From assembly GCA_041667185.1 (NCBI GenBank), contig JBAYFM010000004.1, positions 9,097 to 73,096 on the forward strand: DNA of 64,000 nucleotides, read 5' to 3'. Positions 2,949 to 64,000 of this stretch are shown here, piece by piece. Position 1 is the first letter of the stretch. Every line of letters starts with the position of its first letter. The notes under the pieces were generated by a model. It was not told where the DNA came from and made no database searches. It was given only the letters and a program-made list of their open reading frames with translations. The stretch comes from Patescibacteria group bacterium. Its GTDB lineage: Bacteria; Patescibacteriota; Patescibacteriia; SG8-24. Both the position numbers and the translations under genes were made by a program.

Positions 2949-3590
2949 TCAAACTATCGCAGCCGGAGTCTCGTAGAGATCATGGCGGCTGGCGACAACA
3001 AGCACCTGGCCGGCGCCAGCGATGAGGCCGAGAACGAAGCCGGCGAAAGCATTGGCGGGGATATTGGGTTTGACCGGGTACTTGGACTGCAACGGCTGAT
3101 CCACCAGTTTCACCTGAAGATCACCGCCGCCGACATACTGCCAACCCTCGGTCGTAAGGACGAACGCGATGGCGCGGGCGATCTGCGTGGCTTGTGCGGG
3201 ATCGGTGTGATAGACGGTGACGACGAGCATGCCGGAGCCGCTGACGACCTGGGTCGCGATCATCTGATCCCACTGTTTGCGCTTCTTGGTCTCATCGGTC
3301 TTGAAGATGGTCCGGTCGATGTTGAACTGCGTGGCCAGAACCTTCTCGAAGAACGAGGTCGTGTAGATGATCTGGCCCAGATTGTCCGACAGCCGCTCCG
3401 AAGCTTTCATGGCGGTGTAAGGATCGGACTGCGACAACTGCTTCTGAATGATGAGCAGACGCATGGTGGAACTGTAGCGCAGAGGGAAAACGAAACTCAG
3501 GCCGGCTCCGAAAATAGCCGCCAAAAGGCCGAAAAGCACGATACGCTTCCAGCCGCCGGACAAGGCCCGAGTGTATTGGTAGTCTTCCAT
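2949..3590 (-). CDS. Wzz-like polysaccharide chain-length determinant (short form)
   Basis: N-terminal TM (IVLFGLLAAIFGAGLSFVF), a ~140-aa extracytoplasmic domain and a C-terminal TM (FAGFVLGLIAGAGQVLVV). This matches PCP/Wzz topology. Family assignment is by architecture only. Confidence 0.45.
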   Translation of the reverse strand: MEDYQYTRALSGGWKRIVLFGLLAAIFGAGLSFVFPLRYSSTMRLLIIQKQLSQSDPYTAMKASERLSDNLGQIIYTTSFFEKVLATQFNIDRTIFKTDETKKRKQWDQMIATQVVSGSGMLVVTVYHTDPAQATQIARAIAFVLTTEGWQYVGGGDLQVKLVDQPLQSKYPVKPNIPANAFAGFVLGLIAGAGQVLVVASRHDLYETPAAIV

Positions 3591-9444: not shown

Positions 9445-9836
9445 TGGTGGAGATGGGGAGATTTGAACTCCCGTCTGGCGAGGTATTTCCCGACACTTCT
9501 ACAAGCGTATTCCGTTTGGTATTTCGGCTCGGCGGTGAGAAACGGAATAAACCCGCCGGACCTATCCCCTGCAATGGTCGGCCTGTCCGCCGGGGCCGCG
9601 GTCAGGCTCTGTCCGATAGATGACACCGGGATCCCGCTTATCGGACGTCAGCGGGGCCGATGGGTTCGCGCGTTACGCGAGAACCGGAGCGAATGAAGGC
9701 GCGAAGGCGTTAGCCAGGGCGGTCTTCACCCGATTGACCAAGTTTGCACTTGTTCAGTATCCGTTGATTTACGAGGTAACGGACGTCCTCGGCTCGCATG
9801 CCGTGAAAAAAACTCCCATCGATGCCTGGCATCCCC
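9445..9836 (-). ncRNA. ssrA: tmRNA (ssrA), standard one-piece
   Basis: On the reverse strand the 5' end GGGGAUGCCAGGCAUCGAUGGGAG pairs with the 3' end ...GACGGGAGUUCAAAUCUCCCCAUCUCCACCA. Acceptor stem is 7 bp with G3:U, the T-arm is GGGAG/UUCAAAU/CUCCC, and CCA is encoded. The putative tag frame is GCA AAC UUG ... GUU CUC GCG UAA, giving ANLVNRVKTALANAFAPSFAPVLA*. The gene is directly downstream of smpB and is followed by a hairpin plus U-tract. Confidence 0.8.
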
Positions 9837-15969: not shown

Positions 15970-16047
15970 GGGTCCGTGGTGTAGCCCGGTTAACACGTCT
16001 CCCTGTCACGGAGAAGACCGAGGGTTCGAATCCCTTCGGACCCGCCA
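15970..16047 (+). tRNA. tRNA-Asp (anticodon GUC)
   Basis: Acceptor GGGTCCG/CGGACCC. D-arm GTGT-AGCCCGGTTA-ACAC. Anticodon arm TCTCC-CTGTCAC-GGAGA. Variable region AGACC. T-arm GAGGG-TTCGAAT-CCCTT. Discriminator G and encoded CCA. Confidence 0.85.
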
Positions 16048-26080: not shown

Positions 26081-27349
26081 TCAGTGGACCATCGCGCCAA
26101 ACCACTTCTTGAGATGCTCGGTGACTTTTTCGACCGGTTTGGATTTCGACCACTCGCCCTTGCGGCGCGCGGGCGTTTCCTCAGCTTCCCGCATCGCCCA
26201 CTGCATGAGTCCGATGGCGGTCGTGTAGCCGAGATCCGTGACCTTGTCCGTGATCGAAGTGACGCCGATGGGATAGCCGAGCGAAACCGGCAGACGCAAT
26301 TTTTGCTTGGCCAGGTCAGTGAGTCCGGCGACCTTGGCGCCGCCGCCGGTGATCACGATACCGGCCGGCAGCATGCCGCTCCGGTCGATCTTCTTGAGTT
26401 CGCCATCGACTTTCTCCAGGATCTCCTCGGCCCGGGACTGGATGATGTTGGCGACGTATTTCAAGGAGACCATCTCATCCGAATCAGCGCCCATCTCCTT
26501 CAGATTGATCTCTTCGCGTTTGGTAAGATCCTTGGAGACCGCGCGGCCGTAATTCAGTTTGACCTTCTCGGCAATGTCGATCGACGTCCTGAGCCCGATG
26601 GCGATGTCGCTCGTGATGTGGTCGGCGCCGATGGGCAAGGTCGCAAGATGCATGATATCGCCCTGCTCGAAGACCACGATCGAGGTGGTCGAACCGCCGA
26701 TATTCACGACCGCCACGCCCAATTCTTTCTGCCGGGGCGTCACGACGACCTCGGCCGCGGCCAGGATGCCAAGCACCAGATCATCGATATTGACGCCGGT
26801 GCGATAAACGCATTTGGTGAGATTCTTGATATGTGCGGAAAGCCCCTGGACGATCTGCGCGTCGACCTCGAGCCTGATGCCGGTCATGCCGACCGGGTCC
26901 TTGACCCCCGGCTGGGAGTCGACGGTGAAGGTCTTGGGGATGACGTGAATGATCTCGAAATTGACCGGGGTGGCGATATTCTGCGCGGCCTCGATCGCCC
27001 GCACGACATCATCTTCGCGGATCTCGCCGTCCGGACGGGCCACCGCGACCACGCCTTTGCTCACGAGCGAAGAGACGTGCGTTCCCGGAATGGCGATCAT
27101 AGCGGAACTCACCGGTACGCCGGTCATCCGCTCGACGCGCTCCAAGCAGCTCGAAACCGTCGAGACGGCATCCTCGATCGAGATGACCGTGCCGCGGGAG
27201 ACACCCTCGGAAACCGTTTCCGCGGCGCCGAGGATGTGGACCGATTCCTTGTCGCCGACAGGCAAACGCTGCCCGACCACGATGCGGACGGCGCACGAAC
27301 CGATGTCTATTCCGGCGAAAATCTGATCATTGGGCATAACGCTCGACAA
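26081..27349 (-). CDS. ftsA: Cell division protein FtsA
   Basis: Actin-fold ATPase motifs IFAGIDIGSCAVRIVVG and VVNIGGSTTSIVVFEQGD. Confidence 0.9.
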   Translation of the reverse strand: MSSVMPNDQIFAGIDIGSCAVRIVVGQRLPVGDKESVHILGAAETVSEGVSRGTVISIEDAVSTVSSCLERVERMTGVPVSSAMIAIPGTHVSSLVSKGVVAVARPDGEIREDDVVRAIEAAQNIATPVNFEIIHVIPKTFTVDSQPGVKDPVGMTGIRLEVDAQIVQGLSAHIKNLTKCVYRTGVNIDDLVLGILAAAEVVVTPRQKELGVAVVNIGGSTTSIVVFEQGDIMHLATLPIGADHITSDIAIGLRTSIDIAEKVKLNYGRAVSKDLTKREEINLKEMGADSDEMVSLKYVANIIQSRAEEILEKVDGELKKIDRSGMLPAGIVITGGGAKVAGLTDLAKQKLRLPVSLGYPIGVTSITDKVTDLGYTTAIGLMQWAMREAEETPARRKGEWSKSKPVEKVTEHLKKWFGAMVH

Positions 27350-27371: not shown

Positions 27372-27737
27372 TCAAACTAACGCCGCCAGGCGCGGACCGA
27401 AGATCAACACGGCGATGATCACGGATCCGATCGCGGCAGCAAAAACCGTGCCTGCCATGATATCCTTGATGTCTTCGACATACGGATGCAGGCGCGGTTT
27501 GAAGAGATCGACCATGCGTTCAAAAATACTGTTCAGCAATTCTAACACGAGCACAAGTGCAATAGCAAGCGTCAAAATCGACCGTTCCGCGCCGGAAAGA
27601 TCGAATACGGACATGAGGACGACGACCGCGGCGGCGGCGGCCAATTCAACGCGAAAATTCTGCTCTTCGCGGGCGACTTTGGCGATACCGCGGGCGGCGT
27701 AGCGGAAACTTTTGACTAATTTCTTCGGATCTAACAT
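27372..27737 (-). CDS. dgkA: Diacylglycerol kinase family protein (DgkA-like)
   Basis: Start taken at MLDPKKLVKSFRYAARGI (typical DgkA FRYAxxG motif), three TM helices. The longer ORF would overlap ybeY. Confidence 0.7.
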   Translation of the reverse strand: MLDPKKLVKSFRYAARGIAKVAREEQNFRVELAAAAAVVVLMSVFDLSGAERSILTLAIALVLVLELLNSIFERMVDLFKPRLHPYVEDIKDIMAGTVFAAAIGSVIIAVLIFGPRLAALV

Positions 27738-27750
27738 AGCATTCGCTCGA

Positions 27751-28200
27751 TCAGAGGACTTTGGTCCTGAGCAGGACTTCTTGTTGGAGAAAAAACATCT
27801 TTTTTTCGCGGGCCGGGACGTTGTGATCGTAACCAAGGAGGTGGAGGAACCCGTGGACGATGACGAGAGCGAGTTCCTGCGCGCAAGGCCGGCCGATCTC
27901 GGCCGCCTGGCGGCGCACGCGGCCGGGACAGACGATGAGATCGCCGAGTCCGCCGCTGTCGGACAGGCGACGTTCTTTCCGGTCGAGCTCGTGATAGGCG
28001 AAAGACAGGACGTCGGTCGGCCGATCGAGACCGCGACGCTCGCGATTCAGCCGCCGCATTTCCGGCTCGCTCACGAAGACGATCGAGATCGCGGCCGCGC
28101 CGCTCCAACCAGCCAGCCGGAAAGACATGGCGAGTAATTTTTGCAGAGGCAGTTCCCGGAGACACGCCGGCGGACGACCATGAAGATCAACGCTCACCAT
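27751..28200 (-). CDS. ybeY: rRNA maturation endoribonuclease YbeY
   Basis: Metal-binding motif HGFLHLLGYDH. Confidence 0.85.
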   Translation of the reverse strand: MVSVDLHGRPPACLRELPLQKLLAMSFRLAGWSGAAAISIVFVSEPEMRRLNRERRGLDRPTDVLSFAYHELDRKERRLSDSGGLGDLIVCPGRVRRQAAEIGRPCAQELALVIVHGFLHLLGYDHNVPAREKKMFFLQQEVLLRTKVL

Positions 28201-28277
28201 ACGCCTGAATCATACCGCAGGAGACGGGAATTGAAAACCGCTCCGGAACATTCCGGAGCGGTCGCAATTTCTTGGCT

Positions 28278-29453
28278 CTACTCAGCGACTTTCAGGCTAT
28301 TCACCACCATCTTGAAAGTGACCGCGTAATCAAGTTTATTCTGGCCTCCCAGATTATAACTCACGATGAATATGCGCTTGCCCGCAGCCACGAAGGCCGT
28401 CATCTTGTCCGGGCTCAGGATCTCCTCGTGACCGCCGAGAGTCTTAAGCAATTGAACCTCGGAACCCACGACGCCTGGCGATTGTTCCAGATACCAATCC
28501 AAGAGCGTCTTGTCCGTATCATTGGTTTCGACCAACACCTGGATGAACTCACCCTTGGGCGACGTGAAGTAGGTTTCCTTGCCATCTTCGCCTTTCTCGC
28601 TCACGACCCAGGAGGCCGGACGGAAGATCTCGTAACCCTGGACCGCGCTCTTGTAGACAGCGATCCCCGGATTATTCACGAGCAGGGCCGGGCGCGGCCG
28701 GGCCGGATCGAAAAGGTTGAGTACCTCGTTCAGATCAACGAAACTGTCGCCGTCGGAATCAGGATTGCTCATATCCGAGCCGTAGATGCCGGTCTCTTCC
28801 GCGTCGGTCACGCCGTCAAAATCAGAATCCGCTCCCGGAGTCGGTTCGGGAGGTTCGCAATCAGCGGCGCAGGTCTCGAGAGTCTCAGGTTCCTCGCATT
28901 TGTTGTCACCGCAGACCGGACCGGGCGGCACGCAATCAGCAGAACATGTTTCCACGGTCTCCGGCGCCTCGCATTTGTTGTCACCGCAGACCGGACCCGG
29001 GGACGGGCAGTCGGCCGGACAAACGGCGAAATTCTCGCCGCTTTCGCATCGGTTGTCGCCGCAGACCGGACCGGCCGGAATATTGGCGTTGGTATTGATC
29101 GCGGGCTGGACCGGACCCTTGGCCTTCTGTCCGGGCTGGTAGACCAGGAAATAATACGCAGCGCTGCCGCCGAGAGCTAGCAACAGGAAAATGACGATCA
29201 GGATGATCGGCAACGCGCTGCGTTTCTTGGGCTGCGGCGGTTTGGACGCTGGAGGATTAGCCGCTGCTGCCGGAGCCGGCACTGCCGGTTTCTTCGGCGG
29301 CTCGACCACTTTCTTCTTCAGAGCCGCGCCATAAAACTCATCCGGAATGACGTGGATGACGGTCTCGGAAGAGTTGGCGCCAGGCAAAGCCGCGGTGGGC
29401 GTGCCTGGCGGTTTCTCAAAACCCGGATTCGGAGCGATGTTCGGGGTGTCCAT
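28278..29453 (-). CDS. Membrane-anchored surface protein with three PVCGDNxCE...C.ADC repeats, TSP3 Ca-binding repeats and a C-terminal beta domain
   Basis: TM IILIVIFLLLALGG. Threefold PGPVCGDNKCE(x)PET(x)ETC(x)ADC repeat. DSDFDGVTDAEE and DSDGDSFVDLNE motifs. Confidence 0.6.
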   Translation of the reverse strand: MDTPNIAPNPGFEKPPGTPTAALPGANSSETVIHVIPDEFYGAALKKKVVEPPKKPAVPAPAAAANPPASKPPQPKKRSALPIILIVIFLLLALGGSAAYYFLVYQPGQKAKGPVQPAINTNANIPAGPVCGDNRCESGENFAVCPADCPSPGPVCGDNKCEAPETVETCSADCVPPGPVCGDNKCEEPETLETCAADCEPPEPTPGADSDFDGVTDAEETGIYGSDMSNPDSDGDSFVDLNEVLNLFDPARPRPALLVNNPGIAVYKSAVQGYEIFRPASWVVSEKGEDGKETYFTSPKGEFIQVLVETNDTDKTLLDWYLEQSPGVVGSEVQLLKTLGGHEEILSPDKMTAFVAAGKRIFIVSYNLGGQNKLDYAVTFKMVVNSLKVAE

Positions 29454-29465
29454 GGGAATAGCGGC

Positions 29466-30068
29466 TTAGGGCGTCGGCGGCAGACCGGGCAATTTTCCCG
29501 GCCCCAGCGGATTATAGCCAGCCTTGACCTCGGCGCCATCAAGATAACCGTCACCGTCGGTATCCGGCTTCTTCGGGTCGGTCTTGTATTGGCGCACTTC
29601 TTCAAAGTCGGTCAATCCGTCGTTGTCGGTGTCAACGGCCTGCGGGTCGGTCCCGAGCTGCGCCTCCTCCATATCGGACAACCCATCGCCGTCGGAGTCG
29701 ATCGGAGCGGTCTCTACGGCTGGCGGGACGATCGGCTCCTGCGGCTGCGGTTCGGGTGCTTGCGGCGCGGCCGGTTCGGGCTGGGGCTCTTGGGCCTCCG
29801 GTTGGGTCGGCTGGGCTTCCACATCGGTCGCCGCGGCCTGATCCGTTGGCGCCGCCGGAGCGGGCGCCTGGCTGCGATTCAAAAAGAAATACGCGCCGCC
29901 GCCGATCGCGGCCAGAACGATGACGCCGACAAGACCAAGCAGAAGCTTATTGGGTCCGGCCGAATACGCAGCCTGGGGCGCGGGAACGCCAGAACCAGCC
30001 GGCTGGACCGGCCTGGGCTTGTCCACTTCCGCGAAAATATCTACCGGTTCTTTGGCGTCGTCGAACAT
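29466..30068 (-). CDS. Membrane-anchored protein with TSP3 Ca-binding repeats
   Basis: TM LLLGLVGVIVLAAIGGGAYFF. Pro/Gln/Glu-rich linker. DSDGDGLSDMEE, DTDNDGLTDFEE, DTDGDGYLDGAE. Confidence 0.6.
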   Translation of the reverse strand: MFDDAKEPVDIFAEVDKPRPVQPAGSGVPAPQAAYSAGPNKLLLGLVGVIVLAAIGGGAYFFLNRSQAPAPAAPTDQAAATDVEAQPTQPEAQEPQPEPAAPQAPEPQPQEPIVPPAVETAPIDSDGDGLSDMEEAQLGTDPQAVDTDNDGLTDFEEVRQYKTDPKKPDTDGDGYLDGAEVKAGYNPLGPGKLPGLPPTP

Positions 30069-30257
30069 AAATTTATGTTATCTCAGCGAAAATACTACAA
30101 GCGATACCACAACCATTGTTTATTTCTTTGAGCTTATGATACAGCGGAATTCTTCTGTATTTATCATATCACATCTTTAGACCCGTTTCTATCACCCAAA
30201 ATCGTCGCTAAAACCAAAATCATCTTCCCCAGCCAGGGAGGACGATCTTTTGCGGAC

Positions 30258-30671
30258 TTATTTGCCTTTGACCAGCGGATCGCGGCCGGAACGATATTCT
30301 TCGCTGTCCGAAAGGCCGTCGCCGTCAGTATCGCTCTTGAGAGGGTTTGTCTTGAAGTTGTAATACTCGGCTCCGTCTCCAAGAGTGTCGCCGTCCGTGT
30401 CCCAATTATTCGGGTCAGTCCCGAGTTTGGCCTCTTCCGCAACCGTAAGACCGTCGCCGTCATCATCACCTGAAAGCGGCACTGGGACTGAAGGAGTATC
30501 CTGGCGCGGTTGTTGCTCACCCGCCTCAACACCTGATCCCGACTGCCCTACCGGCACTTGTGCCGCATCTTCCAGAACGGATCGAGATCTCAGATAGAAC
30601 GCCAGAGCGCCACCACCCAACAGGACGACCACGAAAACCGACACGATGATAATGATGAGTTTCCGGTTCAT
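30258..30671 (-). CDS. Membrane-anchored protein with TSP3 Ca-binding repeats
   Basis: TM LIIIIVSVFVVVLLGGGALAFYL. DDDGDGLTVAEE, DTDGDTLGDGAE, DTDGDGLSDSEE. Confidence 0.6.
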   Translation of the reverse strand: MNRKLIIIIVSVFVVVLLGGGALAFYLRSRSVLEDAAQVPVGQSGSGVEAGEQQPRQDTPSVPVPLSGDDDGDGLTVAEEAKLGTDPNNWDTDGDTLGDGAEYYNFKTNPLKSDTDGDGLSDSEEYRSGRDPLVKGK

Positions 30672-42338: not shown

Positions 42339-44522
42339 TTAAGGAGTGCGGGTCGGTCCCAGCTGGCAGTCGAACACTTCCTGGGGATTGCCGTCGCAGC
42401 ACGAAGTGGCGCCAGCCGTGAGCTCGCAAGCGAAGCCCTGGCTCGGAAAGAAACAGTTCTGGAACGCGTCCTTGACCTGCGCTTTGACGACCGGCTGGTA
42501 GAGCGGCAGTTTCTCGGTGACAGTGTCCGTTTCCTCGTTCCAGTTCAGATCATTCAGACGGAAGAACCGCTCGTGTCCCAGATCAGTGACGGTGTGCTCC
42601 GTCGGACCCGCGCCCTGGATCGCGTTGCCGATGATGACGGCTGGCGGATCGATCGGCCTGGCGCAGGTCGAGATGTCCATCTCGCTCGTGCAGTCGGCGG
42701 TGCCGGTCTTCAGCCAGAGTCGGGCGTCATAGAACATCGTCGTGCCGCCGCGCATGGAAGCCGACATCATCGGTTTATTCCAGGCCAGCGTGACCGGAGC
42801 ATCAACAGGCACTGACGACGGATCAGCCGGAGTGATGCCGGCGATCCGCGGCGGATCGAGATCGACCGCGCCGCCGATGCGATAATTGGCGACGGCCGTG
42901 TCGCTGTAAGCTCCGTAGTTCGACGGATCATTGCCCGGCGGAAAGACGTTCCAATTGAAAGCCTCGCGGCTGCCGGAGACTGGGCCCTCGGCCTTGCCGC
43001 TGCGATTGCCGTCGAGGGAATTACCGCTCATATCAGTGACACCATCGGTCGGATCAGCGGCTCCGGGCGGCACCGAACCGACCGTGGCCGCGCGGACCTG
43101 GAACGTGACGTTGGCGTTGGCCGGCAGGCAGAAAACGGACTCGCCGCAGGAATTCGTCACCTTGCCGCCGTCGCAGGGAGCGCTCGGAATGAACTCGACC
43201 GTGCGGTAGCGGTTGCTGATGTCCATCAAACCCTCAATCGAGGTGCAGGTGCCGCCGGTGCAGTCCTTGAGATCGATGAAATTGAAACCTCCGGATCCGG
43301 TCTTGCCGCGCGCGGTCGTCGGATCGAGCGGCTCGTTGAAATACGCGGCCACGACGCGATTCCGGGCCAGAGGATAGATGTTGAACGGACTGGTCGGTCC
43401 CGGCGAAAAATATTCGAGCTTGGGCGGCTCCAGGTCGAAGGTCGTGCTCGTCGTGAAGACCCAGAAATATCCGCCGTCGTTGCCCATGGTGTTGAAGGCC
43501 GGCTTCTGGATCGGAGCGGTTCCCGTCGGTGGCGGCACCCAAGCCTTGATCCCGGCGTCGCCGCCGCGGAGCGCCACGCGATAATCGACCGGTTCGTCAT
43601 TGCTGCCGATGCCGGCCGGCCCGAACCTGAGGACGATGGTCTGGTTATTATCGGCGTTATAAGGCTCATCGACCGCCGTGCGCGTCACGGTCGGCGCGGG
43701 GCTGACGAGCTTGGCGGCCGGATACCGCTGCTCGAAACGATCGGCGACCGAGGCCGCTGTCGGCTCGCCCAGGTCACCCACCTCGATGATCTTGATATTA
43801 TCGGTATTGAGCGTGAGGATGGTCTGCGGCGTGACAGGCGTCTCGATATGGCCTTCGCTAGCGCAGTCCGGCGCACAGACGACGTCATCAGCGACGGCAA
43901 AAGTATTGTTGTCCTTGTAATTCTTGAAAATGGTCGAAAGCACGACCGGCTTCTTGAAAGTGATCGCCACCTTGGTGTTCCGCGGCACGTTGGTCTGGCC
44001 CGCTTCCGGATAGTGGTATTCGATGCCGTAGCCGCGCTGGTTGGGGCCGCAATTGACGCGGCAGCCGCGCGAGAAAAAACTGCCGTCGCCGGAATCGCCG
44101 AGCGGACCAGTGAGCGTGTTGCCGGTCACGGCCCGGAAAATGAACGCCGTGATGGCGTAGGCCGACATGATGATCGCGAGACCGATGGTAGCGTTGATCA
44201 GGATCTTCTTGGCCTGCGTGATCTTCTCCTCGCTCCCCTGCGAGGTCATCCACAAAACGCCGGCGTACAGGATGATGAGCACCGCGGCCACGCCGAGAAA
44301 TGCGAAAAACGCTTTGATGATGTTGCCGATGGTCGTCCGGATATCGGTCGTGCCGAGGCCGATGGCGGTGGCATAATTCAAACCGAGATCGACGCCGCTC
44401 TGAGCGAACGCGACAAGCGGCAAACCGATGGCGGCCAAGATAACGCCAATGACCGCGACGGTGATCGCGGTCTTAGCTGGCGCCGCACTGGCGCCGTTCC
44501 GACGATTTATCCTTCCAAGCAT
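42339..44522 (-). CDS. 727-aa secreted protein sharing the N-terminal pilin-like module of the giant protein; beta-rich passenger
   Basis: ...AFAQSGVDLGLNYATAIGLGTTDIRTT...LIILYAGVLWMTSQGSEEKITQAKK...IGLAIIMSAYAI aligns position-by-position with the N-terminus of the 3879-aa protein. Stop is 15 nt from the giant gene's start. Confidence 0.7.
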   Translation of the reverse strand: MLGRINRRNGASAAPAKTAITVAVIGVILAAIGLPLVAFAQSGVDLGLNYATAIGLGTTDIRTTIGNIIKAFFAFLGVAAVLIILYAGVLWMTSQGSEEKITQAKKILINATIGLAIIMSAYAITAFIFRAVTGNTLTGPLGDSGDGSFFSRGCRVNCGPNQRGYGIEYHYPEAGQTNVPRNTKVAITFKKPVVLSTIFKNYKDNNTFAVADDVVCAPDCASEGHIETPVTPQTILTLNTDNIKIIEVGDLGEPTAASVADRFEQRYPAAKLVSPAPTVTRTAVDEPYNADNNQTIVLRFGPAGIGSNDEPVDYRVALRGGDAGIKAWVPPPTGTAPIQKPAFNTMGNDGGYFWVFTTSTTFDLEPPKLEYFSPGPTSPFNIYPLARNRVVAAYFNEPLDPTTARGKTGSGGFNFIDLKDCTGGTCTSIEGLMDISNRYRTVEFIPSAPCDGGKVTNSCGESVFCLPANANVTFQVRAATVGSVPPGAADPTDGVTDMSGNSLDGNRSGKAEGPVSGSREAFNWNVFPPGNDPSNYGAYSDTAVANYRIGGAVDLDPPRIAGITPADPSSVPVDAPVTLAWNKPMMSASMRGGTTMFYDARLWLKTGTADCTSEMDISTCARPIDPPAVIIGNAIQGAGPTEHTVTDLGHERFFRLNDLNWNEETDTVTEKLPLYQPVVKAQVKDAFQNCFFPSQGFACELTAGATSCCDGNPQEVFDCQLGPTRTP

Positions 44523-44561: not shown

Positions 44562-45017
44562 TCAGGAACTCGACGCGGCGATGATCTCTTTGACCGCGGC
44601 GCTGACCTTCGTGCCATCAGCCTTGCCTTTGGCCTCCTTCATGACCTCGCTCATGACGCGGCCGAAGTCCTTGGCGGTCACCGTCCCGATAACGGCGATC
44701 TTCTGGCGGACCAATTCCTTCAAAGCCTCGTCGCCGAGCTGTTCCGGCAGGTAGGCTTGGAGAATAGCCATCTCCGCCTCCGCTTTCGCCGCCAGATCAG
44801 CGCGCTTGCCGGCGACATAGGACTCCAGGGCGTCGCGAAGCTTCTTCAGCTCCCGGCCGACGACCTCGATGACGTCCTCCTCGGCGAGCGGTTTCATTTT
44901 CTCGATCTCGACGTATTTCAAAGCCGCCCGAAGCAGACGCAAGGTCGACAATTTGTCGGCCTGGCGCGCTTTGGCGGCTTCGGAACAATCGGCGTCGATG
45001 CGTTCTCGAGTGGTCAT
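44562..45017 (-). CDS. GatB/YqeY domain protein
   Basis: Single-domain, ~150 aa, helical, with the Lys/Glu/Ala pattern typical of YqeY (ALKYVEIEK...LESYVAGKRADLAAKAEAEMAILQAYLP). Confidence 0.75.
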   Translation of the reverse strand: MTTRERIDADCSEAAKARQADKLSTLRLLRAALKYVEIEKMKPLAEEDVIEVVGRELKKLRDALESYVAGKRADLAAKAEAEMAILQAYLPEQLGDEALKELVRQKIAVIGTVTAKDFGRVMSEVMKEAKGKADGTKVSAAVKEIIAASSS

Positions 45018-47629: not shown

Positions 47630-47706
47630 TGGTGGGCGCAGGTGGGATCGAACCACCGACCTCTGTCGTGTGAGGACAGCGCTCTAACCAGCTGAGCCAT
47701 GCGCCC
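47630..47706 (-). tRNA. tRNA-Val (anticodon CAC)
   Basis: Reverse strand reads GGGCGCATGGCTCAGCTGGTTAGAGCGCTGTCCTCACACGACAGAGGTCGGTGGTTCGATCCCACCTGCGCCCACCA with cloverleaf pairing and encoded CCA. Confidence 0.85.
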
Positions 47707-58306: not shown

Positions 58307-58390
58307 GCCGCGGTGGCGGAATGGCAGACGCACGCGACTCAAAATCGCGCGGGGCAACTCATGAGGGTTCGACTCCCTCCCGCGGCACCA
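58307..58390 (+). tRNA. tRNA-Leu (anticodon CAA), long variable arm
   Basis: GCCGCGGTGGCGGAATGGCAGACGCACGCGACTCAAAATCGCGCGGGGCAACTCATGAGGGTTCGACTCCCTCCCGCGGCACCA. Acceptor GCCGCGG/CCGCGGC; anticodon loop CUCAAAA; T-arm GAGGG-TTCGACT-CCCTC; encoded CCA. Confidence 0.85.
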
Positions 58391-60532: not shown

Positions 60533-63500
60533 TCAGTGCGACCGACCTCGATGATCTGCAGTGAACCGGTGCGCGGTATAATTTTTGAGGTACACGGAAT
60601 CATCATCGGCATGTACGGTCACTTGGATGAACTTAGTCGCTAACTGGCCAAGACTCACCCGACCGGTAGAAACGCCGGCGTACGCCCCGGTCTCCGGATC
60701 CTGAACGATCGCCAAGTAATCCATCGTCGGTCGTATGCCCAGAACGGACACCCCGGACGAATCGGTCGTCGCGGAGGTGAACGGCGCACAATTGTCATAG
60801 ACCACGCCATAATTGTGCGGATTCGTTCCGATCGCGACCACACAGGCGTCATTCTTGGCGAAGAGCTTCACTGTCGCGCCGACAACAGCTTCTTTTGCGT
60901 CACCCGAATATGACCTATCTTTGAGTGTCTGACGTTGGACAGTCACCTGCACGGCGCTCGGGCAACCCTGCCAGGCAACCCTGCCGGGTGTCACCGGGCA
61001 CGCATCAAACTCATCCTCGGCGCCATCGCCATCATCATCGCTGCCAGCCTCGACGACCGTATTGTGGAGACCAGTGAGCGTGACGACGCTGTTCGCGGCG
61101 TCCACCGCGATAGTCTTGCCTGGCGCATATTCCACGCTCGTACCCGGAGCCGGAATGAGCACGCGCAGAGACGGGAGACAGCCGGTGCCGGTGGAAAACT
61201 CGGCTTCAGGAGAATCATCGACACAGGCGTAATTGCCGGAACCGCGCGGAATCTGAACGGTCTTGGTCTGACCCGGCGGAAGTTGGGCCTCGATCTGGAT
61301 CTTCGGTTTGTTCACGTTGCCGCTCCGGACATCCAGTTCGATGGACGCATTCGGCGAGAGCGGCGTTGTTCCGGCCGGGAACATCACGCCGTAGGAGGCA
61401 CCATTGTTCCCGGTTATCGTGCAAGCGAACGAACCGTCCGGATTCATCACGCAGCTGACCAGCGCCCCGCCGGAAACGGCCACTGGAGGCACGACCGTGG
61501 AGAGCGTCCAATCATAGACCGCGGGCGTCGAATCGGTATTACCGGCGAGATCCGTCGCGCGAACAGCGAAACTGTGCGCGCCGTCCGCCAGACCGACATA
61601 AGAAACACCGCTGACGCAGGCCGCATACGCCCCGCCATCAAGACTGCACTCGAAAGCGCTCGGTGTCTCGCTGGAAACGAACTGAAACACGACAGTGGAG
61701 GCCGACGAGGGCGGAGTCGCGGTGATCGTCGTCTCCGGAGCCATGGTATCGCGGATGACCGCGACCGAGTCCGAACCGATGCCGCCGCCATTGGCAGCCG
61801 ATCGAGTAATGACATTCTCACCCTCGATCAACAGCTGTTCGGTCAACTCCGATGTCTGAACGACGCCATTCACGGTCCAGGCGACCGAGATCGTTGTCTG
61901 GTTCGTAAGCAAGCCGTCAGCCGGCTCTGTGATCACGACAGTCGGCGGCAGCGTCCGGCACAGGTTCATATCATAGGCAACCGTAACATAATCCTGCTCG
62001 CCGCCGATGCGACCGAAGCCGGCAACCACGATATTTCCATCATTCCGGATAACGACCGCATACGCCCGATCATCGCCAGCGGCGACATCCGTCATTACTT
62101 TACCATCATCGCTGAACGAGAGATCAAGCGTACCGTTGGCGTTATAGATCGCGAGGGCGACATCGTTGCTGGCACCGTTGTAAACATAACCAGCGACCAC
62201 AATCTTGCCGTCAAGCCGCACCGCGACCGCTCGCGCTTGTTCGTTACCAGTTCCCGTCCCCATGGTCGTGACGGTCCAGCCATTATTCCCAAAAGAGAGG
62301 TCAAGCGAACCGTCGGCGTTGTAGCGCGCGAGGCCAAAACCGCTGTAATTTCCCAGATAAGCGCCGCCAACGGCGATGATCTTACCATCAGGCTGAACCG
62401 CCACGGCGTAGGCGTCATCGCTTCCGAAATAACCCGTGCCGAGATTCGTCATGACGATACCGGCTTTCCCGTCCAGATCAGCGCCGCTGCCGAACGAGGC
62501 GTCGAGCGAGCCGTCGGCGTTGTAGCGCGCGAGGGCGAAATAATCAGCCATGTATCCTTGCGTGAAGCCCGCAGCAACGATCTTCCCATCAGGCTGGATC
62601 GTCACGGCATACGCGCCGTCGCTGTAATTCGTCCAGGCGGTGGTGCCGACATCAGTTATCACTTTGCCGTCGCCATCGAACGAGGCATCGAGCGAGCCGT
62701 CGGCGTTGTAGCGCGCGAGAGCGAAATCCTGGCCAAGATTATTTGCCACGGCACCCGCAACCACGATCTTGCCATCGGCTTGAATCGCAACAGCATACCC
62801 GCGATCAACATTCGCGACCATATCCGTGGTCACTTTACCGTCGCCGTCGAACGTAGTATCGAGCGAGCCGTCGGCGTTATAGCGGACCACGGCAAAATCA
62901 TGACCAATATCGGAATAAGCAGTGCCTGCGGCCACGATCTTCCCATCGGCTTGGATCGCAACGCTATTCGCCTGCGCCTGCCGACTGCTCCCCACTGGCG
63001 TGACCACCTGGCCACCGACGCCGAACGTGGTATCGAGCGAGCCGTCGGCATTCTGCCGGGCGACGGCGAAATGCCGCACGCCGGCAAACTCCACGCTCCC
63101 TGCAAGGACCGTCTTGCCATCAGGCTGCAAAGCGATCGCGTTCGCCTGGGCCACGCCATGTCCGACCGACGTGGTCACTTTGCCATCGCCGTCGAACGAG
63201 GCGTCGAGCGAGCCGTCGGCGTTGTAGCGCGCGAGAGCGAAATTCTCGGCCGCATTGGTGGTAGTGATCATGGCATAGCCAACCAGGATGATCTTGTCGG
63301 CGCCCCAGGATACGATCGCGCGACCCTGCTCCCCTGCCGTGCCGATACCCGTGGTCAATATGCCATCGCCATCGAACGAGGCATCGAGCGAGCCGTCGGC
63401 GTTGTAGCGCGCGAGGGCAAAATCATAGGTCGTGGTGCTGTTCACGTAGGCCGAACCGCCCGCGATGATCTTGCCGTCGGTCTGGATCATGATCGAGTAA

Positions 63501-64000
63501 GCCTGCGCCGACAGACTGATCGCTGTGGTCAGCTTGCCATCGCCATCGAACGCAGTATCAAGCGAGCCGTCGGCGTTGTAGCGCGCGAGGGCGAACATGT
63601 ATGAGCCATTGGCCCCGAAATACGCGGAACCGCCCGCGATTATCTTGCCGTCGGCTTGTACGGCCACGGAGTTGACCGCATCATAATTGGTCCCGAAATC
63701 CAGGGTCGCTTTGCCATCGCCATCGAACGCAGTATCAAGCGAGCCGTCGGCGTTGTAGCGGACCAGGGCGAAATCGGAATTACCGCTCAGCGTGGAGTTG
63801 CCAGCGACGACGATCGCACCGTCAGGTTGGATGGCCAAAGAATTGGCCCGATCAGTGCCGCCGAGATCCGTGATCGCCTTGCCGCCGACGCCGAACGTGG
63901 TGTCGAGCGAGCCGTCGGCGTTGTAGCGGACCAGGGCGAAATCCTCAGTGCTGCCGATCATGGCGCGGCCGGCGACCACGATCTTCCCGTCGACCTGTAC
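60533..64000 (-). CDS. Large surface protein with 15 or more tandem delta-60-type repeats (consensus FALARYNADGSLDxxFxGDGK) and a C-terminal Ig-like/beta-sandwich region. The N-terminus lies beyond the window.
   Basis: Regular ~55-60-aa periodicity of ARYNADGSLD(T/A)(T/S)F(D/G)GDGK through the ORF. C-terminal ~400 aa are non-repetitive with conserved Cys pairs. Confidence 0.7.
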   Translation of the reverse strand, partial: VQVDGKIVVAGRAMIGSTEDFALVRYNADGSLDTTFGVGGKAITDLGGTDRANSLAIQPDGAIVVAGNSTLSGNSDFALVRYNADGSLDTAFDGDGKATLDFGTNYDAVNSVAVQADGKIIAGGSAYFGANGSYMFALARYNADGSLDTAFDGDGKLTTAISLSAQAYSIMIQTDGKIIAGGSAYVNSTTTYDFALARYNADGSLDASFDGDGILTTGIGTAGEQGRAIVSWGADKIILVGYAMITTTNAAENFALARYNADGSLDASFDGDGKVTTSVGHGVAQANAIALQPDGKTVLAGSVEFAGVRHFAVARQNADGSLDTTFGVGGQVVTPVGSSRQAQANSVAIQADGKIVAAGTAYSDIGHDFAVVRYNADGSLDTTFDGDGKVTTDMVANVDRGYAVAIQADGKIVVAGAVANNLGQDFALARYNADGSLDASFDGDGKVITDVGTTAWTNYSDGAYAVTIQPDGKIVAAGFTQGYMADYFALARYNADGSLDASFGSGADLDGKAGIVMTNLGTGYFGSDDAYAVAVQPDGKIIAVGGAYLGNYSGFGLARYNADGSLDLSFGNNGWTVTTMGTGTGNEQARAVAVRLDGKIVVAGYVYNGASNDVALAIYNANGTLDLSFSDDGKVMTDVAAGDDRAYAVVIRNDGNIVVAGFGRIGGEQDYVTVAYDMNLCRTLPPTVVITEPADGLLTNQTTISVAWTVNGVVQTSELTEQLLIEGENVITRSAANGGGIGSDSVAVIRDTMAPETTITATPPSSASTVVFQFVSSETPSAFECSLDGGAYAACVSGVSYVGLADGAHSFAVRATDLAGNTDSTPAVYDWTLSTVVPPVAVSGGALVSCVMNPDGSFACTITGNNGASYGVMFPAGTTPLSPNASIELDVRSGNVNKPKIQIEAQLPPGQTKTVQIPRGSGNYACVDDSPEAEFSTGTGCLPSLRVLIPAPGTSVEYAPGKTIAVDAANSVVTLTGLHNTVVEAGSDDDGDGAEDEFDACPVTPGRVAWQGCPSAVQVTVQRQTLKDRSYSGDAKEAVVGATVKLFAKNDACVVAIGTNPHNYGVVYDNCAPFTSATTDSSGVSVLGIRPTMDYLAIVQDPETGAYAGVSTGRVSLGQLATKFIQVTVHADDDSVYLKNYTAHRFTADHRGRSH

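Follow-up and report, generated by a model that had tools for sequence, protein, structure and literature searches.

The window analyzed here is a stretch of 64,000 nucleotides from a Patescibacteria group bacterium (GenBank assembly GCA_041667185.1, contig JBAYFM010000004.1). On its minus strand, three small consecutive genes, which we call P1, P2, and P3, encode proteins of 137, 200, and 391 amino acids (aa) directly 3' of a giant gene for a protein of 3879 aa, exactly as claimed in the original prediction, which had been made from the sequence alone and had taken the trio for accessory subunits of a surface structure encoded upstream. Our comparison of related loci indicates that the pair of P2 and P3, rather than the trio, accompanies the giant gene, and it suggests that the pair belongs to an envelope module as transmembrane connectors.

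Within this cluster (Table 1) the gaps are 12 bp between the giant gene and P1, 189 bp between P1 and P2, 12 bp between P2 and P3, and 77 bp between P3 and ybeY, and the giant gene is itself preceded by an open reading frame (ORF) for a protein of 727 aa. Downstream of P3 lie ybeY, dgkA, ftsA, ftsZ, and the genes for pyruvate kinase and PPDK; upstream of the module are yqeY, hisS, a signal peptidase gene, an LCP-family gene, der, pth, dprA, topA, relA/spoT, and parBA. Since these flanks are housekeeping genes, the module resides in core chromosomal DNA and not on a mobile island. A consensus scan for promoters and terminators gave weak matches throughout; one of them, in the P1-P2 spacer, is a promoter-like site at 30191-30163 (TAGAAA-17-TATGAT with an upstream TG), and P2-P3 may therefore have a promoter of their own. 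The public record of the identical P3 sequence is a hypothetical protein of a Patescibacteria group bacterium, and the nearest named relatives are Uhrbacteria. We rejected the possibility that the trio consists of spurious ORFs of GC-rich DNA, given hundreds of conserved homologues with conserved architecture. The opposite-strand ORFs at 28272-29180 and 29352-30131 (plus) were without support, and Rfam and tRNA scans identified nothing within or adjoining the trio.

Table 1 Features of the module and its immediate neighbors; positions are those of the window.
Feature	Position	Strand	Evidence or remark
P3, 391 aa, bitopic, constant module member	28278..29453	minus	about 55 full-length homologues
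P3 cytoplasmic tail motif VIHVIPDEFYGAALKKK, residues 32-48	29310..29360	minus	
P3 transmembrane helix, residues ~81-104, preceded by KKRS	29142..29213	minus	hydropathy; AlphaFold2 (AF2) helix 81-104
P3 Cys4 mini-repeats x3, residues 128-202, lineage-specific insert	28848..29072	minus	
P3 diverged TSP3 repeats x2, residues 209-252	28698..28829	minus	local hidden Markov model (HMM); predicted local distance difference test (pLDDT) 95-98
P3 C-terminal PsbP-like alpha/beta domain (predicted), residues 255-391	28281..28691	minus	Foldseek against PDB
P2, 200 aa, bitopic: tail, transmembrane helix, Pro-rich stalk, 3 TSP3 repeats, C-terminal GYNPxGPGKL	29466..30068	minus	
P2 cytoplasmic tail motif MFDDAKEPVDIFAEVDK, residues 1-17	30018..30068	minus	
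P2 transmembrane helix, residues ~41-63	29880..29948	minus	hydropathy; AF2 helix 41-67
P2 TSP3 repeats x3, residues 124-190	29499..29699	minus	PF18884 82.7 bits; local HMM
P1-P2 spacer	30069-30257	minus	189 bp, AT-rich (genome ~60% GC)
P1, 137 aa, signal-anchored, 3 TSP3 repeats	30258..30671	minus	P2 paralogue without cytoplasmic tail
P1 TSP3 repeats x3, residues ~68-133	30273..30470	minus	PF18884, 3 stretches; local HMM 71-90, 91-111, 114-133
P1 hydrophobic signal-anchor, residues ~5-27	30591..30659	minus	Kyte-Doolittle windows >1.6 at residues 1-11 onward
Giant protein, 3879 aa	30684..42323	minus	Pfam: VirB2-like N-terminal anchor, TIG/IPT, Big_5, Cys-rich DUF4215 repeats, MopE-like motif, C-type lectin
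727-aa surface protein, first gene of the module	42339..44522	minus	PF18895 (VirB2-like T4SS_pilin two-helix anchor) E 3.6e-10; Big_5 PF13205
yqeY	44562-45017		upstream neighbor of the module
ybeY, dgkA	27372-28200		downstream neighbors of the module
ftsA	26081-27349		two genes beyond P3

Conservation of the gene order in related genomes

Species-representative genomes were scanned with an alignment of P3, which gave 145 stretches confirmed by tblastn, of which the best 80 loci were kept; a scripted analysis covered 85 loci (cited below by L number). Upstream DNA reached 5 kb or more in 63 of the loci, and in 61 of these 63 an ORF of 800 aa or longer, homologous to the giant of the window, lay on the same strand and ended no more than 3 kb upstream of the P3 homologue; wherever the start of the large ORF was visible in the scanned loci, it carried a VirB2-like pilin anchor. 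When we looked up six P3 homologues (28-55% identity) and three P2 homologues individually, all had the same gene order: a large T4SS_pilin gene of 1516-4080 aa, one to three small genes, P3, ybeY-dgkA, and then, in all but one, ftsA-ftsZ. The exception, L090, contains an insertion of ~5.7 kb between dgkA and ftsA but retains the giant gene, P2, P3, ybeY, and dgkA intact; its large gene has no pilin match on record, but a gene with a pilin domain lies just upstream. The linkage held down to 22-28% identity of P3, in genomes named Uhr-, Falkow-, Magasanik-, Kuenen-, Komeili-, and Buchananbacteria. Many metagenome-assembled genomes (within L008-L087) titled "uncultured Gammaproteobacteria bacterium" also carry the giant-P2-P3-ybeY-dgkA-ftsAZ order; because the locus is of Patescibacteria type, these titles are probably mislabels.

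Between the giant gene and P3, 40 loci had a single small TSP3 gene and 28 had two, while one locus had three and one had none. The P1 slot is thus variable, as no more than 29 of 70 loci contain a second gene of this kind. In close Uhrbacteria relatives, this slot holds a protein with a transmembrane segment, a Cys repeat, and a beta-domain but no TSP3 repeats, and the Cys-repeat unit of P3 recurs in P1- and P2-slot proteins of close relatives. The predicted synteny with a giant gene is therefore borne out for the P2-P3 pair, not for the trio. The gap between P2 and P3 has a median of 14 bp and is at most 50 bp in 56 of 76 loci, and ybeY adjoins P3 in 66 of 77.

The giant-P2-P3 block is kept in at least three different downstream contexts. 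In L080 and its relatives it is followed by clpP, secDF, genes for a Wzy/TPR protein, a glycosyltransferase, and a prepilin peptidase, and then ftsAZ; in a minority of genomes, as in L022 (10796-14058), mreC, a small ORF, and a PBP2-type transpeptidase gene replace ybeY-dgkA-ftsAZ, and the gene sizes in L036 (8311-11539) are similar to this mreC-PBP2 set. The block is also kept where relA, not yqeY, lies upstream. Both the ybeY-dgkA-ftsAZ and the mreC-PBP2 contexts place it beside genes of cell shape and division. In L004, rpsU-yqeY lies directly upstream of the giant gene. In Bacillus, rpsU-yqeY...phoH-ybeY-dgkA form one conserved cluster, so that the genes for the surface proteins seem to have entered an old housekeeping block, between yqeY and ybeY-dgkA.

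Such a neighborhood could also be explained if P2 and P3 were general envelope spacers, that is, calcium-stiffened stalks of the wall zone resembling the TSP3 spacers of OmpA-family proteins, without a specific link to the giant protein and adjacent to it by inheritance. Consistent with this, the TSP3 segment of P2 matches many OmpA-family proteins of other phyla, the order lepB-hisS-...-yqeY / module / ybeY-dgkA-ftsA-ftsZ-nrdR-pyk-ppdK is itself conserved, and the link to the giant protein comes from gene context. We nevertheless consider spacers unlikely, as the giant gene, P2, and P3 stay together when the downstream genes (three variants) and the upstream genes (yqeY or relA) change, P2 and P3 keep their tight 14-bp spacing, P3 and the giant protein have Cys-repeat units in common, and conserved cytoplasmic motifs would be unexpected in a passive spacer. 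Because the block is retained across changed contexts, the Cys units are shared, and the giant protein resembles an adhesin, we favor a functional module over the other readings.

Architecture and calcium-binding repeats of the small proteins

Each of the three proteins has one hydrophobic segment, in line with the membrane anchors that had been predicted, although the segment is truly N-terminal only in P1. A linker rich in Pro, Gln, and Ala stands out in P2, whose 200 residues include 32 P, 28 A, and 14 Q; in P3 the corresponding composition lies mostly on the tail side of the transmembrane helix and does not form an outer linker. The trio had further been described as paralogous. P1 and P2 are true paralogues, with 40% identity over 153 aa (E 8e-28) in a homologous region that begins at the transmembrane helix and extends to the C-terminus, whereas a comparison of P2 with P3 revealed only the TSP3 pair in common.

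The two or three DxDxDGxxDxxE motifs ascribed to each protein are present (three in P1, three in P2, and two in P3), but the family suggested for them, PF02412 (TSP_3), was not matched by any of the three proteins at E<=1. The right family is PF18884 (TSP3_bac), for which the gathering cut-off of Pfam is 25 bits: P1 scored 52.6 bits (E 4e-14) and P2 82.7 bits (E 1.5e-23), each over three stretches. P3 had no PF18884 match at E<=1 as a whole protein, nor at E<=10 when its repeat segment was searched alone. When we scored the P3 repeats with a local HMM trained on 207 repeats taken from orthologues in other genomes, they reached 27.7 bits, compared with 2.9 bits for the best of 200 shuffles of P3, and several P3 homologues carry a precomputed PF18884 match. 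Judged by these profiles, P3 contains diverged TSP3-type repeats and is not a Pfam-level member, so that the predicted profile significance holds in Pfam for P1 and P2 and in the local profile for P3.

All loops of P1 and P2 and the first loop of P3 have Asp or Asn at positions 1, 3, and 5, Gly at position 6, and a later acidic ligand, and the loop Asp positions are invariant in the P2 and P3 families. Among 52 members of the P3 family, D209, D213, G214, E219, E220, and D240 of the repeat region are invariant. In the AF2 model of P2, residues 121-190 have a pLDDT of 97-98, and the TSP3 pair superimposes on the B domain of Staphylococcus aureus Bap (7c7r/7c7u) with 0.8-1.0 Å over 44 residues and 45% identity; the likeness is limited to this 44-residue calcium-loop pair, the rest of Bap being absent from P2, and the Foldseek E was only 0.014; phmmer matched the two at E 0.0069. 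P2 is also weakly similar in sequence to lanmodulin (6mi5, E 0.0025). The PF18884 matches of P1 and P2, the superposition on the Bap B domain, and the similarity to lanmodulin make calcium binding by the TSP3 modules a well-motivated expectation.

The ectodomain of P3

The threefold Cys repeat that had been noted in P3 is real. Its units (GPVCGDNxCE...C.ADC) start at residues 128, 153, and 178, with a period of 25 aa and 4 Cys per unit, for 12 Cys in all. They have no Pfam family in a search to E<=10, are not a tandem repeat at the DNA level by Tandem Repeats Finder, and were counted in only 6 of 85 loci. The repeats resemble the Cys-rich repeats at residues 2886-2963 of the giant protein (BLASTP E 2e-5).

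The AF2 model of P3, which was based on 52 homologues, has a mean pLDDT of 81 and a disordered tail. Its Cys repeats are modeled with a pLDDT of 85-91 and no regular secondary structure, and the two TSP3 repeats together with the C-terminal alpha/beta domain form one rigid unit with a pLDDT of 95-98. A Foldseek search of the PDB with the C-terminal domain identified PsbP (2xb3, 1v2b) and CyanoP (2lnj) at E 1e-5 to 4e-5 and a probability of 1.00, followed by BT_1490 and the type VI secretion system immunity protein Tsi3 at ~1e-4 and, weakly, the Eag chaperone SciW. In the predicted model (pLDDT >95), the domain has the alpha-beta-alpha sandwich of the PsbP-like fold. The Pfam family PsbP (PF01789) was not reached: the full protein scored 14.1 bits and the domain alone 17.7 bits against a cut-off of 23.5, and this weak match lies on the first 55 residues of the domain. 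As modeled, then, the domain has a PsbP-like fold and is not a member of Pfam PsbP. An exhaustive phmmer search with it returned 857 clusters at 50% identity at E<=1e-3 and 257 at 1e-10, and domains of this type are nearly always C-terminal in proteins of 300-500 aa.

The upstream surface proteins

Residues ~3400-3560 of the giant protein matched Lectin_C (PF00059) with 38.1 bits in a segment search, a domain that the whole-protein Pfam scan had not listed; its last ~170 residues had no family match. With its C-type lectin domain and its TIG, Big_5, and DUF4215 repeats, the protein looks like an adhesin. Ahead of the giant, relatives often have a second pilin-domain protein of ~500-900 aa where the upstream DNA suffices, and this second, shorter protein was seen wherever the region was visible, in L037, L039, L053, L056, L063, and L084.

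Cytoplasmic tails and their candidate partners

P2 and P3 carry conserved motifs ahead of their transmembrane helices. The P2 tail is 40 aa long; F2, D10, and I11 are invariant and M1 and P8 at least 90% conserved among 36 homologues. The family starts with MF(D/E) and carries P-x-D-I-F, many members also having PPxNLP[VI]; among proteins at the P2 position, MF[DENK] occurs in 62 of 76 and an acidic-acidic-[IMVL][FL] motif in 56 of 76. The P3 tail is ~80 aa long, with its motif ~40 residues ahead of the helix and a variable, Pro-rich spacer between. F40 is invariant and I33, H34, P37, G42, and A43 are at least 90% conserved; the logo from 64 genomes reads (E/D)-P-E-I-H-V-[MI]-P-x-x-[FY]-[YR]-G-x-A, and a degenerate h-x-x-[IM]-P is found in essentially every full-length P3 tail. 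PilN is said to have a conserved motif, INLLP, of the same shape as IHVMP.

Every locus checked had both of the two distinct tail types, and their pairing persists where ectodomains have been exchanged: the protein at the P2 position of about nine loci combines a P2-type tail with a P3-type PsbP-like ectodomain. L036 (5708-8122) contains a natural fusion of P2 and P3, an 805-aa ORF with a P2-type tail (MFEP...AEDMFASV), a P3-type tail (ESVHVMSSKF), and one transmembrane helix, after which come two TSP3 repeats and then a PsbP-like domain. These swaps and this fusion indicate that it is the tail type and not the ectodomain that identifies the partners P2 and P3. Conserved short motifs on disordered tails point to a binding partner in the cytoplasm; to judge from the disulfide-type Cys repeats and the calcium modules, the C-terminal parts lie outside the cell.

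FtsA is one candidate for this partner. The P3 tail sequence VIHVIPDEF has the same eight-residue pattern as IIHVIPKTF, a strand at residue 133 of FtsA, within the Pfam SHS2 (IC domain) match at residues 89-167 of the FtsA of the window. When we searched the ORFs of 87 loci (659,510 residues) for [IVL][HRFY][VT][IM]P..[FYL], we found it only in P3, FtsA (51 loci), and one giant. Through a short N-terminal tail, the bitopic proteins FtsN and PilN attach to FtsA and PilM, respectively, in the IA-IC cleft (PMC7613929), and P3 has the same predicted topology, with a tail motif found over 64 genomes and a single transmembrane helix. P3, perhaps with P2, might accordingly be an FtsN/PilN-like protein whose tail docks on FtsA or another actin-like ATPase and thereby links its external part to the machinery of division or elongation, its proximity to the giant gene being secondary. 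Gene order speaks for this, with ftsA two genes downstream in 66 of 77 loci and otherwise mreC-PBP2, or secDF...ftsAZ within 8 kb, as do the P3 architecture and the restriction of the tail pattern. The motif match to FtsA was, however, noticed post hoc, and from residue frequencies we roughly estimate the chance of any neighboring family matching at ~0.02; mimicry of an internal FtsA strand is not an established mode of binding, the ectodomain of P3 is PsbP-like and neither SPOR-like nor PilN-like, and the insertion in L090 separates ftsA from an otherwise intact block. We hold this reading to be more doubtful than that of passive spacers.

A bolder proposal, and a less probable one again, would join the FtsA contact to the adhesin: P2 and P3 would form a heteromeric connector whose tails (MFD/PPxNLP/acidic-IF in P2 and E-P-E-I-H-V-M-P-x-x-F-Y-G-x-A in P3) dock on FtsA, P3 either in the IA-IC cleft in the manner of PilN and FtsN or by mimicking the SHS2 strand, so that the lectin-bearing adhesin is coupled to the divisome. 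If true, host attachment and cell division would for the first time be linked in Patescibacteria; these ultra-small episymbionts would place or inherit their attachment organelle at the division site or pole, and the connector would be a functional analogue of FtsN/PilN specific to the Candidate Phyla Radiation (CPR).

A secretion ATPase is a second candidate. In L071 (1735-4945) and L073 (1282-4513), P2-P3 are preceded by an ATPase of ~590 aa that resembles the coupling protein TrwB/TraG of type IV secretion systems (T4SS) and has a treble-clef zinc finger; before it lies a 480-aa protein that ends in PPxNLPIK, a motif common to 22 tails at the P2 position. Among all loci checked, this adjacency was seen only in these two, which are closely related. 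It bears on the idea that P2 and P3 are VirB10/VirB8-like parts of a T4SS-like apparatus, with their tails on its ATPases and the giant as a decorated pilin. VirB2-like T4SS_pilin domains occur in both the giant and the 727-aa protein, Patescibacteria commonly have arrays of VirB2-like genes (PMC12102498), and the succession of tail, transmembrane helix, Pro-rich region, and C-terminal domain resembles VirB10, the name "VirB10-like" being used by one source for a P2 homologue, where it probably reflects proline-rich composition. Pfam, NCBIfam, and Foldseek searches identified no sequence or fold similarity to VirB8 or VirB10/TrbI, and there is no virB4, virB6, or coupling protein gene in the window, nor in the other loci apart from the coupling-protein-like ATPase of L071 and L073. 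We regard this as the least probable of the readings considered.

A proposed envelope module

We assign a probability of about 0.5 to the reading that P2 and P3, with P1 as an optional member, and the two VirB2-like-anchored proteins constitute one envelope module, conserved in Patescibacteria of the Uhrbacteria type, in which P2 and P3 are calcium-dependent accessory or tether subunits at the base of the giant adhesin with tails that couple to a cytoplasmic partner. P2 and P3 would each cross the membrane once, with the N-terminus inside and the C-terminus outside, and P1 would be an extra copy of P2. Outside the cell, P2 would present its calcium-binding TSP3 modules on a proline-rich stalk, and P3 would present its own fused to a PsbP-like interaction domain. 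Lying close to the membrane and presumably touching the giant protein, the pair would hold or organize the base of the lectin-bearing adhesin in a calcium-dependent manner, and the conserved tails would couple this assembly to the partner inside. Of the accessory role in a surface structure that was originally predicted, synteny supports the association, and "scaffold or tether" is a function that we infer from gene context; the purely external scaffold gives way to a transmembrane connector, given the cytoplasmic tail motifs and the PsbP-like domain.

Several observations weigh against this reading. The association with the giant protein comes wholly from gene context, and gene order is largely preserved across the wider region too (yqeY ... 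ybeY-dgkA-ftsA-ftsZ); synteny is the weaker as proof of function for that, since the linkage may partly be inherited gene order. L071 and L073 have P2-P3 without a giant gene. The TSP3 repeats of P3 fail Pfam, position 6 of its second loop is Ser and not Gly, and the positive-inside signal for the topology of P2 is ambiguous.

A large part of bacterial diversity belongs to the Patescibacteria, most of which live attached to host cells; to our knowledge, the mode of attachment is known for only a few cultivated Saccharibacteria. The present work defines a conserved envelope module of four to five genes in Uhrbacteria-type lineages, set inside core housekeeping DNA and composed of two VirB2-like-anchored proteins, one of them giant and lectin-bearing, and an obligate bitopic pair with calcium repeats. 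It offers parts that lend themselves to experiment, namely a small, easily expressed protein pair, predicted calcium-binding modules, and two motifs with which to fish out the partner, as well as a PsbP-like domain family of about 850 sequence clusters without a Pfam model. The module would gain greatly in interest if FtsA or a secretion ATPase proved to be what the tails connect the adhesin to; either partner would explain how a giant surface fiber is positioned in a cell of a few hundred nanometers.

Other features of the window

At the edge of the window, a gene at 60533-63979 (minus) encodes 1148 aa with an Ig-like domain and 11 beta-propeller repeats of DUF5122 (E 2e-124), probably another large surface protein. 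A tmRNA gene at 9445-9836 (minus; Rfam 126 bits) encodes the tag peptide ANLVNRVKTALANAFAPSFAPVLA, and there are genes for tRNA-Asp (15970-16047), tRNA-Val (47630-47706, minus), and tRNA-Leu (58307-58390).

Comparison with known systems

In Pfam, NCBIfam, and fold searches, none of P1-P3 qualified as CglD, MtsD, FliL, VirB8, VirB10, FtsN, or PilN. The trio has in common with bacterial TSP3 proteins (PF18884; OmpA-family proteins and Myxococcus CglD/MtsD) the DxDxDGxxDxxE repeat with a period of 22-23 aa. NCBIfam gave no family assignment, only partial matches in the repeat region (CglD, MtsD, and an FliL-like transmembrane match) far below cut-off, those to CglD/MtsD scoring 35-42 bits against equivalog cut-offs of 400-800. 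Unlike OmpA-family TSP3 proteins, the trio lacks an OmpA barrel, a peptidoglycan-binding domain, and a lipoprotein signal, and unlike these and CglD/MtsD its members are very small, bitopic, and equipped with conserved cytoplasmic tails, in a CPR cell of monoderm type. By analogy only, the tandem calcium-loop-plus-helix repeats of 22-23 residues at the end of a linker recall dockerin and cohesin, and small TSP3 modules that plug into a large scaffold in dockerin style are plausible; in contrast to that system, there is no dockerin Pfam match in the trio, and we identified no domain resembling cohesin in the giant protein.

The predicted C-terminal domain of P3 resembles the folds of PsbP/CyanoP, BT_1490, and Tsi3 (Foldseek E 1e-5 to 1e-3, target TM-scores 0.45-0.54). 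It differs from this fold family in its low identity (11-17%), in having no photosystem context, and in its fusion to two TSP3 repeats and a membrane anchor. Like FtsN and PilN, P3 combines a short conserved N-terminal cytoplasmic motif with one transmembrane helix and an external domain, and its gene lies near one of the FtsA family; unlike them, it has no sequence homology to either, no SPOR domain or PilN-type ectodomain, and a longer tail (~80 aa, with a Pro-rich spacer).

Our search of the literature found no description of the module or of the tail motifs. A related arrangement is that of the VirB2-like arrays of Patescibacteria, which comprise 2-11 genes and are described without mention of giant fusions or TSP3 partners (PMC12102498). 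As in those arrays, the two upstream genes of the module carry PF18895 in tandem; here, however, the pilin-like domain is a mere anchor of multidomain proteins of 727 aa and 3879 aa, the tandem is followed by TSP3 proteins, and virB4 is not adjacent. The module is a new combination built from known kinds of parts.

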